Part shown: one piece after another, positions 56,856 to 64,000 of the stretch
Layout: each line of letters starts with the position of its first letter
Position numbering within the stretch: position 1 is the stretch's first letter
Source: Omnitrophica bacterium GWA2_41_15
GTDB taxonomy: Bacteria; Omnitrophota; Gorgyraeia; Gygaellales; UBA12090
Direction of reading: 5' to 3'
Assembly (NCBI GenBank): GCA_919902675.1
Contig: CAKKRH010000001.1
Location: forward strand, 3-64,002
DNA length: 64,000 bases
Translations under genes and position numbers: made by a program
Notes under the pieces: model-generated
What the model was told of the DNA's origin: nothing
The model's database searches: none
The model's input: the letters and a program-made list of their open reading frames with translations, nothing else

Positions 56856-56874
56856 GCCTTTGAAATCCGAAAAG

Positions 56875-56892
56875 ATTATTCTAAATATCTCC
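56875..56892 (+). repeat. 18-bp direct repeat identical to the copA 5' end (left copy)
   Basis: ATTATTCTAAATATCTCC, identical to 62932-62949. The flanks are also similar (GAAA.. before, CC.GGGA after). Confidence 0.75.
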
Positions 56893-56900
56893 TGGGAAAA

Positions 56901-57004
56901 GATAGGGTCAAACCTCAAAACTCCAAAATAGCCATTAACGCTGGAATTGGTAAGAGATTAGATAAATTGTAAGTTTGAGGTTTGACCTTATCAGTGACCC
57001 TATC
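56901..57004. other. nested inverted repeats adjacent to the left direct repeat
   Basis: GATAGGGTCA (56901-10) / TGACCCTATC (56995-57004), and GGTCAAACCTCAAA (56906-19) / TTTGAGGTTTGACC (56974-87). Confidence 0.6.
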
Positions 57005-57144
57005 AACATTCTATGAAATCCCAGACGCGAAGAATATCTATAACAATATGAGCAATAAAGAGATATTAAAAAAGAAGGTTTTTGTCCGTACTTTCGGCTG
57101 GCCAGTGGCAGGATTATAGTAATGCGATGAGGAGCTTGGCCGAG

Positions 57145-57714
57145 GCTATATTAGGCTAGAGGCGATAGATAAAAGGCTATAGGCGATAGGCAATGGGCTA
57201 TAGAAAAACCTATAGCCTCTCGCCTATAGCCTATAGCCTGGAGTGAAACTCATGGGCAAAGGGTTTGAGCAATTACAGGTTTGGCAGAAAGCGAAAGACA
57301 TTGCGGTTTTGATTTACAAGGTCACGGCTGATGGGAAAATCGCTAAGGACTTCAGCTTGCGCGATCAAATGCGGCGCTCGGCTATAAGCATAGCCAGCAA
57401 TATCGCTGAAGGCGACGAAAGAGATACAGACAAGAAATCGGTACGATTTTTCTTTATTGCAAAAGGTTCACTTGCGGAATTACGGACTCAGCTCAGGATC
57501 GCACTGGAAGTCAATTTCTTGGATAAAGATGAATTTGCCAAGATCAAACAGGATTGTTTGGAAATTGGCAAGATGTTGGGCGGATTAATAAAGCATAGAA
57601 TAGGCGATAGGCAATAGGCGATAGGACGGGAAAATCCTATAGGCTATGGCGTGATGTCTCTCGCTTTTTTTATTACCTATAGCCTATCGCCTCGCGTCTA
57701 TAGCCTAATATAGG
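57145..57714 (+). mobile_element. inverted-repeat-bounded four-helix-bundle gene module (rRNA-IVS-like)
   Basis: The left flank CTATATTAGGCTA..GGCGATAG is the reverse complement of the right flank CTATCGCC..TAGCCTAATATAG (57676-57714). ATAGGCN heptad arrays fill both flanks. Confidence 0.5.
57252..57617 (+). CDS. four-helix-bundle protein (23S rRNA intervening-sequence protein family)
   Basis: FEQLQVWQKAKDIAVLIYKV, RDQMRRSAISIASNIAEG, AKGSLAELRTQL. Confidence 0.75.
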   Translation: MGKGFEQLQVWQKAKDIAVLIYKVTADGKIAKDFSLRDQMRRSAISIASNIAEGDERDTDKKSVRFFFIAKGSLAELRTQLRIALEVNFLDKDEFAKIKQDCLEIGKMLGGLIKHRIGDRQ

Positions 57715-57780
57715 GTCGGGCGAGGCGCGGTTGTCAGTGATTGTGGTCAAAAAAATCGATGTCAATGTCAATTCAATCGA

Positions 57781-57856
57781 GGCAATAGGCGATAGGCTTT
57801 TGGCGATAGGATTAATAACCTATAGCCTATGACCTATCGCCTATTGCCTTTTTTAG
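57781..57856 (+). terminator. long heptad-built hairpin with T-run
   Basis: GGCAATAGGCGATAGG...CCTATCGCCTATTGCC (outer 16 bp perfect) followed by TTTTTT. Confidence 0.6.
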
Positions 57857-58006
57857 GCATCAATGGTCAAACTGGCTAAAATAAGCGCCCAGCGTCGGAA
57901 GACAGGCGATTTTAGGGGTGTTTTAGGGGCGTCTGGAGAGGTCAAAAATAGGCGTTTTGATGGACATCTATGGACATCATTTTGTCTACAGCGAGAGTGA
58001 TTATTC

Positions 58007-58090
58007 TTGACTCTCAGGCGTTTCATGGTAAAATGTCCACTAATTGGAAATGTCCACTAAATAGTGGACATTTAGGAGTAGTGGACATTT
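58007..58090 (+). promoter_or_regulatory. promoter plus four-copy 12-mer operator array
   Basis: TTGACT 58007-12, 16-nt spacer, TAAAAT 58029-34. AAATGTCCACTA at 58031 and 58048, with its complement TAGTGGACATTT at 58062 and 58079. Confidence 0.6.
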
Positions 58091-58822: not shown

Positions 58823-59606
58823 AGAATTCCCGGGAGAAAAACTCCTCATCAAAGTCATAGATGATCTGGCTGATTTTTTGCCGTATCTTGTTCTGGTAGG
58901 CGGTTGGGTGCCGTACATCTATGCCAGACATATGTGGAAAGACGTTCCCAATATGGCAGTGACTACTGGAGATATTGATTTTGGTGTCGGTGATCATGAT
59001 TTTAACGGCAAGGATACGGTTGCTTCTCGGGTGCAACGATTGGGATATGGAGAGCGCCACGTTTCAATGGATCGACCATATCCGTTCGTTCCTATTGCGA
59101 AAGACGCAACCGGTGAGACAAAAACCGAAGTTGAGTTTATAACTGACCCCAAGGTTTCCCGGAAAGTCATCAATAAAATCGTTGGCAAAGAGATCAAGAT
59201 CAATGAAATCCAGCATTTCAGTTTATTGCTTGGTTCTGTCATGCCGGTAAAAATGAACGGCAAAAGCATCCAGATACCGACAGAATCGATGTTTGTTTTT
59301 CATAAACTGTTGACGTTTGTGGATCGGGAAAATAAAGCTAAACTCAGGAAAGATCTTTATTACGTTTACTATATGATCAGATTCAGCCCGACAAAGGCAC
59401 AGCTTTGTGACGATGTGGTCGGCCTTATCAAAAAACTTAAAGAAGGCAAACAAGTCAAAGAGAATCTCAAAGAGTATTTTAGCAGTGTTGATTCAAAGGG
59501 GCCTTTATTTGTCGAACAGGAAAACGGCCCGGACGCTTATGTCGCGAATGTGAGAGAAGACGCGTTTGAGAAATTTAGCGACATTAGGCGAAGGGTTGAG
59601 GGATGA
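58815..59606 (+). CDS. nucleotidyltransferase-fold protein (GSU2403/AbiEii-like toxin candidate)
   Basis: LVLVGGWVPYIY and TGDIDFGVGD NTase motifs. 8-nt overlap with the upstream wHTH gene. Confidence 0.6.
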   Translation: MLKEFPGEKLLIKVIDDLADFLPYLVLVGGWVPYIYARHMWKDVPNMAVTTGDIDFGVGDHDFNGKDTVASRVQRLGYGERHVSMDRPYPFVPIAKDATGETKTEVEFITDPKVSRKVINKIVGKEIKINEIQHFSLLLGSVMPVKMNGKSIQIPTESMFVFHKLLTFVDRENKAKLRKDLYYVYYMIRFSPTKAQLCDDVVGLIKKLKEGKQVKENLKEYFSSVDSKGPLFVEQENGPDAYVANVREDAFEKFSDIRRRVEG

Positions 59607-59848
59607 AAACCTTCGCTATCGGCGACATCCACGGCGCCTATAAGGCGATGATGCAGTGCTTTGAGCGCTCAAAGTTCGATTATAAGAAAGACCGAACATT
59701 ACAACCAATTCATGTTTGCAATGTTTGGAATATCGATACCGGTGCTGGATGGTCAGGCAAGCTCACGATCATAGATGTTGATACAAAGGAATATTGGCAG
59801 TCGGATTTGACGCCGGACTTATACGGCGGAACGCCGGATAAATTATAA
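59603..59848 (+). pseudogene. internally deleted metallophosphoesterase (Ser/Thr phosphatase-like)
   Basis: N-terminal FAIGDIHG joins directly to C-terminal NIDTGAGWSGKLTIIDV. The GDxxDRG, GNHE and HGH blocks are absent, leaving 81 aa. Confidence 0.55.
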
Positions 59849-60401: not shown

Positions 60402-60848
60402 ATGGCGAAGGAAAGAAAAATCACAGGTATAAGGTCTTGGCCGGAGGATGACAGGCCGAGAGAAAAACTCCTCAAAAAGGGCGCGGGAGCTTTGAGTAAT
60501 TCCGAGCTTCTGGCCATTCTTCTTCGCACCGGAACGCAGGGCACCAGCGCAATTGACCTCGCCCGCAAAATCTTAAAGAAATTCAGCACATTCCGCAATA
60601 TGGCCCACACCGACGCCCGGGACTGGAAAGAGTTCAAGGGTTTAGGCGGGGCCAAGATCGCCCATATTCAGGCCGCGCTTGAAATCGGGCGGCGCTATCG
60701 ACAGGACGATGTGTCCACCGGGAAGCAGAAAATCGCCTCTGCAAAAGATATTGTGGATATCGTCATGCCTCAGCTTCGGGACCTTAAATATCAAAAAATA
60801 TCAAAAGACGCTCTATATAATTCAAATATCAAAAGACGCTCTATATAA
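60402..60848 (+). pseudogene. radC: radC (UPF0758) truncated before the JAB/MPN domain
   Basis: RSWPEDDRPREKLLKKGAGALSNSELLAILLRTGTQG and HhH KGLGGAKIAHIQAALEIGRR are intact. Homology stops at MPQLRDLK (~60785), where the repeat tract begins. No HNHPSG motif is present. Confidence 0.7.
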
Positions 60849-60852
60849 TTCA
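60798..60852 (+). repeat. 28-nt tandem duplication of the left end of the 127-bp repeat
   Basis: ATATCAAAAGACGCTCTATATAATTCA at 60798-60824 and 60826-60852, with a further partial ATATCAAAA at about 60788. Confidence 0.8.
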
Positions 60853-60954
60853 TTGCGTTGCAATAGGTTGCAAAACAATTCCATGGAATACATAAAGTAT
60901 AATTGTTTTGTAATTCATTCAGCGTGATAAGGTTAGATAAAGCGTCTTGTGAGT
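60828..60954 (+). repeat. 127-bp perfect direct repeat, copy 1
   Basis: Identical base for base to 62253-62379. Internal dyads AAGACGCT/AGCGTCTT and CAAAACAATT/AATTGTTTTG. Confidence 0.9.
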
Positions 60955-60957
60955 GTA

Positions 60958-61063
60958 CGGGGTAAAGCTTCTGCCGCTCATAATGAGCAAGAGAACCTTT
61001 ACCCCGCGGCGGCTCGGACACGACAGCCGAAGGTCTTTATAAAGACCTTCGGCTGGCCGGTGG
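60958..61063 (+). repeat. hairpin element A (GGGGTAAAG stem plus 26-nt perfect palindrome)
   Basis: GGGGTAAAG (60959-67) / CTTTACCCC (60997-61005). CCGAAGGTCTTTATAAAGACCTTCGG at 61027-61052. A 51-bp core is identical to 62819-62869. Confidence 0.8.
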
Positions 61064-61176
61064 TTCCGTTTCCACAGGACTATGTTGTCTTTTCTGGAGT
61101 ACGCATATGAAGATGAGCTTAATAAGGTATCTACTTATATACCAAAAGGTTAATATAAATAGAATGGGATTAAGCT

Positions 61177-62184
61177 ATGAAAAATAAGATTACTGAAATA
61201 CCGTCAAAGGGCGAAATTATCATTTACCGGACCAAAGACAAGAAAATCCAGCTTGAAGTTAAATTGGAGCAGGAAACGGTTTGGCTTTCTCAGAAACAAA
61301 TTGCCGACTTGTTTATTAAAGATATCCGTACGATTAATGAGCATATACAAAACATATTCAAAGAAAAGGAGTTAAAGAAAAATTCAGTTATCCGGAATTT
61401 CCGGATAACTGCCGCTGATGGTAAAAGCTACGAGACAAATTTCTATAATCTCGATGTAATTATTTCAGTTGGGTACCGTATAAAATCCCAGAACGGCACA
61501 CGGTTCCGTATTTGGGCTACGAATGTACTAAGAAGGCATCTTATAGATGGCTATACATTGAATGAAAAGCGCTTAAAGGAGCAAACTCTAAAACTTCAGG
61601 CCTTGCAACGGGCAGTAAAGCTTATTGGCAGCATGAAGGATCGTAAACAACTTGAATATAAAGAGGCCATGGGATTGCTTGAAGTTATCAGCGATTATAA
61701 TTACGCACTAGGCCTCTTGGATGATTATGATTACAAGCGGCTCAAGGTGTCGCATACTTCTAAAGAAGAGAAATTCATATTAAGCCAGGAAGCCGCATTG
61801 AGGGCGGTTGAAAAGTTAAAAGAAAAAATTGGCTGCTCTGACCTTTTTGGCGTGATGCGCGATAAATCTTTTGAAAGCTCAATTTCTTCAATTTATCAGA
61901 CATTCAGTGGAAGGGACTTGTACCCAAGCGTTGAGGAGAAAGCGGCTAATCTTCTTTACTTTATTGTCAAGAACCATTCGTTTGTTGATGGTAATAAGCG
62001 GATCGCTGCCTCAATATTTTTATGGTTTTTAGGGAAAAATGGTATCTTGTATAAAGAAGATGGTTCAAAGCGCATTGCCGATAATGCTTTAGTCTCCTTG
62101 ACTTTAATAACTGCTGAAAGCAAGCCCAGCGAGCGCAACGTTATCGTTACTCTGGTTGTGAATCTGATAAACAGGAATAATTAA
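61177..62184 (+). CDS. RhuM-like N-terminal domain fused to Fic/Doc domain protein
   Basis: N-terminus ...ETVWLSQKQIADLF...NLDVIISVGYRIKS..GTRFRIWAT is RhuM-like. The C-terminal HSFVDGNKRIAA is the Fic/Doc HxFxDGNKR motif. Confidence 0.8.
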   Translation: MKNKITEIPSKGEIIIYRTKDKKIQLEVKLEQETVWLSQKQIADLFIKDIRTINEHIQNIFKEKELKKNSVIRNFRITAADGKSYETNFYNLDVIISVGYRIKSQNGTRFRIWATNVLRRHLIDGYTLNEKRLKEQTLKLQALQRAVKLIGSMKDRKQLEYKEAMGLLEVISDYNYALGLLDDYDYKRLKVSHTSKEEKFILSQEAALRAVEKLKEKIGCSDLFGVMRDKSFESSISSIYQTFSGRDLYPSVEEKAANLLYFIVKNHSFVDGNKRIAASIFLWFLGKNGILYKEDGSKRIADNALVSLTLITAESKPSERNVIVTLVVNLINRNN

Positions 62185-62252
62185 CAATAAGGACACAGTT
62201 CCAGTGTAATTATAGTTATCGTATAGATATAAAATAAAACGGCCCCAGTAAG

Positions 62253-62379
62253 ATCAAAAGACGCTCTATATAATTCATTGCGTTGCAATAGGTTGCAAAA
62301 CAATTCCATGGAATACATAAAGTATAATTGTTTTGTAATTCATTCAGCGTGATAAGGTTAGATAAAGCGTCTTGTGAGT
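62253..62379 (+). repeat. 127-bp perfect direct repeat, copy 2
   Basis: Identical to 60828-60954 and 1425 bp downstream of it. Confidence 0.9.
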
Positions 62380-62414
62380 TTCTTTTGTGAGTTAAGCGTC
62401 CTGAGGATATTTGC

Positions 62415-62669
62415 ATGACGCATCGGGCAGAGGACGCGGACCCAAATGTGCCTTGGAATTTCTGCGGACATGTCCATGAAAAATATAAGGTGAAACGATT
62501 AAGCGAGAATTCTTTGGTTGTGAATCTCTGCGTCAAGGTGTGGAATTATTATCCGGTTTCATTTGAAGAGATTGGTTCCGCTGTCTCCGCGTTCTTGAAG
62601 GAAGAAAAGAAAGCCTGTGCCCAAAGGGACAAACGGGACATGAACAGGACAAACGCGACAAAGGCGTAA
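62415..62669 (+). pseudogene. 3' fragment of a metallophosphoesterase gene
   Basis: FCGHVHEKYKV...VVNLCVKVWNYYPVSFEEI resembles the C-terminal third of calcineurin-like phosphoesterases. No N-terminal metal motifs are present. It starts just after repeat copy 2. Confidence 0.45.
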
Positions 62670-62731: not shown

Positions 62732-62787
62732 CAAACGTGCGGGCTGCCAAGTCCGGCTGCAAACGTGCGGGCTGCCAAGTCCGGCCG
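62732..62787 (+). repeat. 28-nt tandem direct repeat (2 units)
   Basis: CAAACGTGCGGGCTGCCAAGTCCGGCTG followed by the same unit with one T-to-C change. Confidence 0.8.
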
Positions 62788-62796
62788 CCAAGCATG

Positions 62797-62878
62797 CGGG
62801 GTAAAGCTTGCTGCTCAACCTTTACCCCGCGGCGGCTCGGACACGACAGCCGAAGGTCTTTATAAAGACTTTTGGCTG
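62797..62878 (+). repeat. hairpin element B (shorter copy of element A)
   Basis: GGGGTAAAG (62798-806) / CTTTACCCC (62820-28) with a 13-nt loop. The palindrome is degraded to ...AAAGACTTTTGG. Confidence 0.8.
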
Positions 62879-62922
62879 ACGAATGTCTGTGATTCGCCGG
62901 CAGGGGAAAATAGGATAGGTTG

Positions 62923-64000
62923 ATGGAAAGAATTATTCTAAATATCTCCGGGATGCATTGCGCTTCTTGCGCGGGGAATATTGAGGGCGCGCTGAAGAAT
63001 GCCGCAGGCGTCCAAGGTGCCCGGGTGAATTTTGCCTTGGAGAAGGCGGAGATTGAGTTTGATCCGCGGGTGTTAAGGGCCAAAGATGCCATTACCGTAA
63101 TAGAAAAGGCAGGGTATAAAGCCTTTATTCCCGAAGAAGGTATTGATCGGGAAAGGGAATCGCGGGAAAAAGAGGTCCGAAGCCTTAAAATACGTTTTAT
63201 TATTGCCGCTATTTTATCCGGAATTTTAATGTATGTGGCAATGGGGCATTGTCTGGGGTTGTGCCTGGCGCATTGTATCACCCAGAATAGCCCGCTTATC
63301 CAGTTTATCCTGGCCAGCGCCGTGCTGGCCGCGGGCGGGCAATTCTTCAGCCGGGGGCTAAGAGCGGTCTTTAAAAACCGCCAGGCCTCAATGGATACCC
63401 TGGTGGCATTAGGGGTAGGTAGCGCCTATCTTTACAGCGTATTTGTAAGCCTGGCTATTTGGAGAGGTAATGCCGCTTTCAGCTCAAATGACCTTTACTA
63501 TGAGGTGGCTGCTTTTTTGATTACCTTTATCCTCTTAGGTAAATACCTGGAGGCCATTACCAAACGCAAGACCTCTCAGGCCATTCGCAGGCTCTGGGGT
63601 CTGCGGCCAAAGACCGCCCTGGTGATCCAGCAGGGCCGGGAAATAGAGGCGCGGCTTGAGGATTTAAGGGTGGGCGATTTGATCGCGATTAAGCCCGGAG
63701 GGAGGATCCCGGTTGACGGTGAGATTATTGAAGGCTATTCCAGCGTGGATGAATCGGTGATAACCGGGGAGAGCATCCCGGTGGAAAAGAATGCCGGGGA
63801 CGCGGTGATTGCCGGATCTATCAATAAGCACGGGGCCTTTACCTTTAGGGCCCAAAAGGTAGGCCGGGAAACTACTCTCGCCCAAATCATAAAATTAGTG
63901 GAAGATGCCCAAATGTCCAAGGCCCCTATCCAGGAGCTGGCGGATAAAGTTGCCTCCATTTTTGTCCCGGTAGTCTTAGTCATTGCCTTTTTGGCCTTTT
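62923..64000 (+). CDS. copA: copper-translocating P1B-type ATPase, 3' end outside window
   Basis: Open frame from ATG 62923 to the window edge. HMA domain ILNISGMHCASCAGNIEGAL, and an actuator region DESVITGESIPVEK in frame at about 63745. Confidence 0.9.
   Translation, partial: MERIILNISGMHCASCAGNIEGALKNAAGVQGARVNFALEKAEIEFDPRVLRAKDAITVIEKAGYKAFIPEEGIDRERESREKEVRSLKIRFIIAAILSGILMYVAMGHCLGLCLAHCITQNSPLIQFILASAVLAAGGQFFSRGLRAVFKNRQASMDTLVALGVGSAYLYSVFVSLAIWRGNAAFSSNDLYYEVAAFLITFILLGKYLEAITKRKTSQAIRRLWGLRPKTALVIQQGREIEARLEDLRVGDLIAIKPGGRIPVDGEIIEGYSSVDESVITGESIPVEKNAGDAVIAGSINKHGAFTFRAQKVGRETTLAQIIKLVEDAQMSKAPIQELADKVASIFVPVVLVIAFLAF
62932..62949 (+). repeat. 18-bp direct repeat (right copy, inside copA codons 4-9)
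   Basis: ATTATTCTAAATATCTCC, identical to 56875-56892. Confidence 0.75.

Follow-up and report, generated by a model that had tools for sequence, protein, structure and literature searches.

A palindromic, probably MITE-like repeat at rearrangement breakpoints in an accessory island of an Omnitrophota bacterium

Bacterial miniature inverted-repeat transposable elements (MITEs) are defined by, among other features, terminal inverted repeats that enclose a short core, a length of <200-400 bp and the lack of a transposase gene (PMC3184786). ERIC elements are ~127 bp long, MITEs of the ERIC, Correia and RUP types span ~105-157 bp, and the Xenorhabdus copies of ERIC (locus D) are found among truncated genes in a plastic region (PMC3184786), while an integron of Acinetobacter sp. 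NFM2 is flanked by identical MITE-like direct repeats (Gillings et al., 2009, as presented in PMC3184786). Here we describe repeat A, a 127/130-nt palindromic repeat, two copies of which (copy 1, A1, and copy 2, A2) surround a Fic-type gene in a 64-kb stretch of DNA from Omnitrophica bacterium GWA2_41_15 (assembly GCA_919902675.1, contig CAKKRH010000001.1, positions 3 to 64,002), hereafter referred to as the window. On the present evidence, A is an ordinary, though neatly documented, MITE-like repeat, and its family, though new, belongs to a class of elements that is well established and does not amount to a novel type of system. The closest precedent is the pair of MITE-like repeats at the Acinetobacter integron, and the Xenorhabdus ERIC copies are also close.

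As far as they are described in PMC3184786, the Acinetobacter repeats resemble A1 and A2 in being identical, AT-rich, strongly folding non-coding copies that bear terminal inverted repeats and stand in direct orientation around a cargo; the ends of that cargo are deleted at the fusion points, and homologous recombination between the copies is possible. The same account gives the Acinetobacter element a length of 439 bp and a 5-bp direct repeat at its outer ends, whereas A has 130 bp and no such duplication; in contrast to that integron, the A pair is flanked by two different truncated genes and its cargo is a single Fic gene. With the ERIC, Correia and RUP elements A shares its size, an imperfect palindrome with terminal inverted repeats, a long RNA stem-loop and an intergenic site, and with the Xenorhabdus locus D copies of ERIC a tie to plastic regions and truncated genes. 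Families of these types show target-site duplications (often TA), are found in both orientations and attain high copy numbers, whereas A lacks the duplication, is strictly co-oriented and appears to be low-copy and clustered. Set against the definition of bacterial MITEs, A has the terminal inverted repeats, the small size, the multiple contexts and the long stem-loop, and carries no transposase gene; the flanking target-site duplication is the feature that it lacks. The features of the locus, in which repeat A is interleaved with a second repeat, B, in the order A-B-Fic-A-'PE''-B, are as follows.

60402 to ~60788, + strand: radC', a 5' fragment of a RadC-family gene, with the HhH N-terminal domain and the first ~25 aa of the JAB domain
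60786-60823, + strand: left-end stutter, made up of a partial start of 10 nt (AAATATCAAA) and then 28 nt that repeat part of the left end of A
60821-60849, + strand: sigma-70-like promoter match TTCAAA-17-TATAAT (consensus match only, 10/12)
60825-60954, + strand: A1, a 130-nt AT-rich (31.5% GC) imperfect palindrome
60955-61058, + strand: B1, copy 1 of repeat B, two strong hairpins abutting A1 (-60.6 kcal/mol, z = -8.2)
61177-62184, + strand: RhuM-Fic/Doc gene, 335 aa (Pfam Virulence_RhuM and Fic; NCBIfam DOC_P1)
62250-62379, + strand: A2, 130 nt
62380-62403, + strand: right-end stutter TTCTTTTGTGAGTTAAGCGTCCTG, 24 nt made of re-copied pieces of the right end of A (TTGTGAGTT, AAGCGTC)
62404-62669, + strand: 'PE'', the 3' part (codons ~105-191) of a gene for a small metallophosphoesterase, with an ATG-initiated open reading frame (ORF) at 62415-62669
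62732-62787: 28-nt tandem duplication (CAAACGTGCGGGCTGCCAAGTCCGGCTG twice) between 'PE'' and B2
62796-62881, + strand: B2, copy 2 of repeat B, which lies shortly before copA; 62 nt align at 97% identity, and the loop of hairpin 1 contains an indel
from 62923: copA
56869-56892 (+ strand) and 62926-62949: ~24-nt direct repeat (18 nt exact), the right copy of which forms the first codons of copA

The two copies of A align over 130 nt with a single mismatch (position 3), start 1425 bp apart and have the RhuM-Fic/Doc gene as the sole gene between them. The initial annotation, which had described 60828-60954 and 62253-62379 as identical over 127 nt, as bracketing this gene and as coinciding with the truncation points of radC and a phosphoesterase gene, was accurate on each of these points; the copies abut both gene fragments. 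A 50-mer of the repeat occurs exactly twice in the window and not once in 100 shuffles. The layout is seen well beyond this one assembly, on more than 9 contigs: identical Fic, radC' and 'PE'' proteins are encoded on 6-9 contigs in separate assemblies from the Hainich groundwater wells H52 and H51, and a 2.15-Mb long-read-style contig (ENA ERZ1286166, contig_28) is collinear with the window at 99.8% identity over the whole region. Short contigs break at the repeat boundaries, as expected of a true repeat (L034 begins at 60828 and L003 ends 33 nt inside A2). Since the independent short-read assemblies and the 2.15-Mb contig agree, the duplication is not an assembly artefact. The proposal that it reflects a recent duplication or recombination also stands, because A1 and A2 are identical while other members of the family differ by up to 20%.

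Repeat A belongs to a small family, carried by groundwater bacteria of an uncultured lineage. Copies were sought with a degenerate pattern for both A termini, which matches both ends of each copy, among GTDB representatives, IMG/VR and metagenome contigs, and related loci were fetched for comparison. The repeat is not confined to the window: five other contigs carry copies of 80-100% identity next to unrelated neighbours. All real extra copies among the metagenome contigs come from the Hainich wells H41 and H43. Scans of IMG/VR gave 0 matches and then 2 single matches, neither of which was picked up as a copy of A when searched with a covariance model. Neither an nhmmer profile nor a covariance model (R1) of A revealed further or more diverged copies where they were run, on the window and some of the fetched loci, and a protein search with the open minus-strand frame of A, made to find more copies, gave no candidates. 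The copies outside the window are distributed as follows.

L014: two full copies (82% identity to A, 89% between the two), with msrBA and a Fic gene enclosed by them
L027: a single full copy, on one side of which lies a Schlafen/AlbA_2-like gene and on the other a gene for a helix-turn-helix (HTH)-nucleotidyltransferase, its left end tandem-duplicated independently (20 nt)
L015: positions 1-71 of A only, 98.6% identical, after an AbiEi/nucleotidyltransferase pair and a truncated ApaH-like phosphatase gene
L023: positions 76-130 of A only, 100% identical
L009: a well-conserved right half just after engB

L009 may not represent a clean half-copy, as a very degenerate left arm may remain. The Fic gene of L014 is not homologous to that of the window, with the Fic motif alone in common. 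L014 and L027 come from a single sample and overlap by 7 nt in the same reading frame of one gene, which suggests that they are probably parts of one array with three co-oriented A copies in ~5 kb. In L015 the break in the loop of the half-copy is followed by an exonuclease 3' end and the copA start; the nucleotidyltransferase at this locus is 40% identical to that of the window, as against 98.6% for the left half of A, so that A moves, or is homogenised, independently of its neighbours. Those neighbours are accessory or toxin-type genes (Fic, AbiE/nucleotidyltransferase, Schlafen-like), and their best protein matches are named Candidatus Omnitrophota. Repeat A is not a regular companion of the L014-type Fic family or of truncated radC genes: Omnitrophota Fic loci (L038-L047) lack it, as do other loci with a truncated radC (L048-L052). 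It is a discrete non-coding element with defined ends that stands in unrelated gene contexts and is conserved far better than the genes around it.

The dyad symmetry noticed in the initial annotation extends further than was described there, for the whole element forms one long imperfect hairpin on either strand (+ strand RNA, -41.4 kcal/mol, z = -6.5; DNA, -21 kcal/mol, z = -5.8), and its terminal inverted repeats, TCAAAAGACGCTCTATATAA and TTAGATAAAGCGTCTTGTGA, match at 17/21 positions. An outer inverted repeat of ~20 bp (AAAGACGCTCTAT.TAA / TTAGATAAAGCGTCTT) and an inner one of ~13 bp (GCAAAACAATT / AATTGTTTYG) are invariant in the four distinct full copies, in which only the middle segments and a 20-24-nt loop vary. 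The + strand frames of A are closed, and the radC' ORF terminates inside it. The internal TATAAT is indeed present in the window copies, but such promoter-like hexamers are not conserved across related copies. The longer match TTCAAA-17-TATAAT at A1 arises from the junction of the tandem duplication, and the independent duplication in L027 gives none; promoter-like sites are no more frequent in the region than in shuffles. A dif/Xer-like core in the loop (GGAATACATAA-AGTATA-...) was ruled out, as it is not conserved in the other variants.

Where A meets its neighbours, genes are cut. The loss of the JAB domain from radC at A1, which had been proposed from the outset, is evident in that radC' matches Pfam UPF0758_N alone and only positions 1-112 of the 212 in the NCBIfam RadC profile; the remainder of the JAB domain and its motif are absent elsewhere in the window. 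As called, the radC' ORF extends to 60848, inside the repeat; intact relatives (88% identical) read ...LRDLK-TEVFKV past the radC' end, so that radC homology ends at 60788 (LRDLK|TEVF). Here radC' overlaps the first stutter by a 3-nt microhomology (AAA), and the left end of A1 is tandemly duplicated, as first reported, with the 28-nt unit AAATATCAAAAGACGCTCTATATAATTC at 60796-60823 and 60824-60851 and a 10-nt partial start at 60786-95. On the other side, the 84-aa ORF of 'PE'' went unrecognised by the hidden Markov model libraries, and an exhaustive search aligned it with Metallophos_2-type proteins of 160-200 aa, over their C-terminal ~60 residues. An intact 191-aa phosphoesterase gene is found in L037, where the neighbouring AbiEi/nucleotidyltransferase pair shares 87% DNA identity with the window; homology to this gene restarts at 62404. 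The truncation of the phosphoesterase gene is thus real, although the fragment begins 24 nt, not 35 nt, past A2 and has lost about 54% of the gene where two-thirds had been reported.

Altogether, the cut falls exactly on an outer end of A in three cases, namely radC' at A1, 'PE'' at A2 and, in L015, the ApaH-like phosphatase gene, which compared with the intact L037 protein ends at ...EQVFVH|. Terminal stutters are likewise present at three junctions (the left end of A1, the left end of the L027 copy and the right end of A2). The two clear half-copies break in the loop, at 71|72 in L015 and 75|76 in L023, where an identity of ~100% drops abruptly to none; the two halves share no overlap, so that there is no single crossover nucleotide. 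Both outer ends of A and its hairpin loop therefore coincide with rearrangement breakpoints.

A further rearrangement of the same modules is seen in an Omnitrophica metagenome-assembled genome (MAG), in which a phosphoesterase gene homologous to 'PE'' follows an L014-type Fic gene and carries an internal deletion (L046, 3393-3800). The right breakpoint of this deletion (TTC|GGATATTTGC) lies within 1 nt of the A2 junction of the window, which suggests a shared or reused breakpoint. A 30-codon remnant of radC follows the phosphoesterase gene, so that the module order is a circular permutation of the radC'-Fic-'PE'' order of the window.

The interpretation we favour, to which we give roughly even chances, is that A represents a new family of MITE/ERIC-like, non-autonomous palindromic elements that spread by recombination and act as rearrangement hotspots. 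A1 and A2 would have arisen recently from a single copy, via recombination through A. Either a circle or segment carrying A-B-Fic would have integrated into a resident A, a route that reproduces the observed A-B-Fic-A-'PE''-B order exactly, or the event would have been replicative; the outcome would be a composite, cassette-like A-[B-Fic]-A unit. The palindrome would stall or break replication forks, and repair by illegitimate, microhomology-using, template-switching joins would yield the gene truncations at the ends of A, the terminal stutter duplications and the half-copies broken in the loop. To judge from the anatomy of the junctions, palindrome-provoked breakage with microhomology repair would explain them best. 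Palindrome-mediated rearrangement, by hairpin or cruciform cleavage followed by end joining, is familiar from SbcCD biology and from human PATRR translocations. As in those cases, the breaks at A cluster at the tip of an AT-rich palindrome, and short deletions and templated insertions are found at the junctions. Rearrangement of this kind is a process and does not define a class of elements; it leaves the arrival of A in new contexts unexplained. Where it is transcribed together with the gene upstream, A would probably also form a long 3' hairpin with a U-run behind it, and its co-orientation with flanking genes and the T-run past its right end suggest that cells may tolerate it, or selection may favour it, in the role of a 3' hairpin or terminator-like module. 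The mobilising enzyme, if there is one, would be encoded elsewhere or no longer exist.

Several observations weigh against this interpretation. The family is narrow, since the 185,579 GTDB species representatives yielded no copy of A (5 chance 20-mers only). Each of the 7 copies, which are spread over 6 loci, has the orientation of its flanking genes, a bias that would not be expected of random transposition, and the copies cluster in accessory islands, with two in the 64 kb of the window and none in 55 kb of core genes. A scan for target-site duplications, which covered five full copies and the A1...A2 composite at offsets of 0-15 nt and lengths of 2-9 nt, returned only chance 2-nt matches. 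Among the 30 larger ORFs of the window that were tested there is neither a transposase nor an insertion sequence with matching ends. Contigs that carry the neighbouring proteins show no gain, loss, excision or empty-site variant, and the deletion between the copies that the initial annotation had envisaged is likewise not seen in them. Finally, the radC breakpoint at least may reflect a hotspot that is independent of A, given that radC 5' fragments cut elsewhere are widespread without it. The heptamer AAATATC, considered as an insertion target, is not usable evidence because it occurs 33 times in the window.

The radC fragments in question (loci L048-L052, proteins P0214-P0331) number in the dozens. 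They are 102-180 aa long, 75-94% identical and cut at many different residues, come from Candidatus Omnitrophota MAGs and Hainich contigs, and usually lie just downstream of AbiE-type toxin-antitoxin pairs, at contig ends and without A; radC therefore appears, from these sequences, to be a recurrent rearrangement or integration boundary of the Omnitrophota lineage in its own right. Four of the contigs all stop 105 nt past the truncated radC. In L052, whose island is syntenic, a minus-strand ORF that runs off the contig end (5578-5973) lies directly next to the truncated radC; considered as a candidate recombinase, it gave no match in Pfam.

The idea that A1 and A2 delimit a small mobile unit carrying the Fic gene holds in part. 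Locus L014 again has two copies around a Fic gene, non-homologous to that of the window, together with msrBA. Against it, the outer flanks in the window belong to two different truncated genes, and neither a target-site duplication nor an empty site or excision variant was found in the scans described above.

Repeat A could alternatively be an attC-like recombination site, at which cassettes of one or two genes would be inserted and excised by a site-specific recombinase whose gene lies elsewhere, giving co-oriented arrays with hybrid half-sites at their borders with core genes. We consider this unlikely, although A recalls attC sites and CALIN arrays in its role and in its array-like arrangement: those sites, too, are imperfect palindromes (57-141 nt) that separate co-oriented, often toxin-antitoxin, cassettes, with high similarity between neighbouring sites and no target duplication. 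Direct, co-oriented copies of A form arrays of two and probably three, with 1.4-2.2 kb of accessory genes between them, and each hairpin has two conserved inverted-repeat pairs. The polarity of the half-copies is as expected, with the left half before copA (L015) and the right halves upstream of cargo (L023, possibly L009). In the copies of L014 and L027 a GTTAGAT box (GTTRRRY) has ATGTAAC as its pairing partner, and in the window that partner is ATATAAT (by inspection only).

The canonical R''/L''/L'/R' geometry, on the other hand, is missing from A. Judged by inspection, the R''/R' boxes (RYYYAAC / GTTRRRY) are not at its outer limits, and the L''/L' boxes with their spacing, the unpaired central spacer and the extrahelical bases are absent; instead, the consensus fold has a 1-2-nt bulge and then continuous pairing, with candidate boxes 15-17 nt apart. 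Both inter-copy identity and pairing extend 16 nt beyond the putative R' box. No gene for an integrase (intI included), transposase or recombinase was found among the window's 30 larger ORFs or in the 10 kb that follow it downstream. The breaks lie at the hairpin tip and the outer ends and not at G|TT; they do not fall at one nucleotide in the half-copies (71|72, 75|76 and earlier in L009), and the two halves lack an overlap region. Truncated genes and end stutters are not products of conservative site-specific recombination, and excision variants are missing from the contigs with neighbouring proteins.

It is similarly improbable that A is primarily an RNA-level module, that is, a SPRITE-like hairpin of the 3' untranslated region that serves as a terminator, stabiliser or processing site and is transferred by homologous recombination only. 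SPRITE, a pneumococcal repeat of about 105 bp that resembles a Rho-independent terminator and is biased to the 3' ends of genes (PMC3184786), is a precedent for such a repeat, and A shares its terminator-resembling fold and its placement. Every copy of A is co-oriented with the flanking genes and lies 65-100 nt past the upstream stop codon; an A-run stands ahead of the left end and, in 5/7 copies, a T-run follows the right end. The predicted RNA hairpins are very stable (-29 to -42 kcal/mol). However, the stem of A is far longer than that of a terminator, and a consensus terminator scan does not call A, whose role as a terminator is putative. The Rfam scan (Rfam 15) gave no match window-wide at gathering thresholds and none within A at E <= 5. 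The co-orientation and the T-runs are compatible with a role in a 3' untranslated region or as a terminator, and A may or may not be the structured RNA gene suggested earlier. Comparison of the full copies showed no compensatory covariation, and because the stems do not vary this is a signal neither for nor against an RNA. Nor does the + strand fold consistently better: an advantage from G-U pairs holds for the window variant alone, and in the other variants it is lacking or lies with the opposite strand. Unlike A, SPRITE is not reported to lie where genes have been truncated, and an RNA module alone leaves the sharp ends in unrelated contexts, the truncations, the stutters and the half-copies unaccounted for.

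A variant of the cassette idea, which we think very unlikely, makes A the site of an integron-independent cassette system of Omnitrophota-like groundwater bacteria, with exchange at the hairpin tip and the enzyme encoded elsewhere. The 130-nt hairpin sites would separate co-oriented toxin or defence cassettes in arrays, and the half-copies by copA, and possibly by engB, would be hybrid sites at array ends. In our estimate it is likewise a long shot that recombination of a cassette type lies behind the strict co-orientation and the clustering in array-like groups.

Effectively refuted, finally, is the notion that A1 and A2 are attL and attR of an integrated Fic-carrying element (or, as discussed above, an assembly artefact): the identical direct repeats around a single toxin-type gene would suit it, but there is no recombinase between or near the copies, the flanks (radC' and 'PE'') are two different truncated genes and not one split target, no empty site occurs in contigs with the neighbouring proteins, and the sequence is dispersed, being found in other contexts singly, as half-copies and probably three in a row. 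A REP/REPIN element with its RAYT can also be discarded, as REPs are short, GC-rich and of high copy number across extragenic space, whereas A has 31.5% GC and two copies in 64 kb, both in one island.

That accessory island comprises ~6 kb (about 56.9-62.9 kb) between the ~24-nt copies of the copA start. L015 shows an uninterrupted join of the exonuclease 3' end and copA, and the repeated copA start looks like the att-type core of an integrated island; no integrase lies within the island, and no island-free variant was found among contigs with an identical exonuclease protein. The island is rich in other long hairpins and eroded genes. The ApaH-like metallophosphatase gene that A cuts in L015 is eroded in a different way here: PE' (59603-59848, an 81-aa ORF) lacks 445 bp from its interior (breakpoint 59694/59696) when compared with the intact gene of L037, which encodes 231 aa.

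Repeat B, which forms two very stable hairpins (-60.6 and -43.6 kcal/mol), sits 45-130 nt upstream of the Fic, copA and (partial third copy, ~57093-57108) IVP genes and is absent from all other loci fetched. The last of these genes, which is 23S-rRNA-IVP/bAvd-like (57243-57617), has the simple repeats AGGCGATAGGC/CCTATAGCC on both sides (57150-57860 of the window), and these form long hairpins, such as 57174-57240 at -45 kcal/mol. At the start of the island, 56901-56993 is a ~93-nt near-perfect hairpin with a 19-bp stem (GATAGGGTCAAACCTCAAA.../...TTTGAGGTTTGACCTTATC; -34 kcal/mol, z = -4.95). A 60-nt palindrome of AAATGTCCACTA units (58031-58090) lies just upstream of the AbiEi-like gene and is kept in L037 and L052; its position suggests that it is likely the autoregulatory operator of the toxin-antitoxin pair. 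Near the 28-nt tandem duplication, a 14-nt repeat (GGACAAACGNGACA twice) occupies 62627-62660.

Repeat A thus provides a sequence-defined case of the shuffling and erosion of Fic, AbiE, phosphoesterase and radC modules in an uncultured and poorly studied phylum. Were the cassette-site reading true, it would mean a second, non-integron cassette system. Because a single 130-bp palindrome marks the junctions, A can be used in the metagenomes of Hainich groundwater as a probe with which to map plastic regions and the variation among strains.

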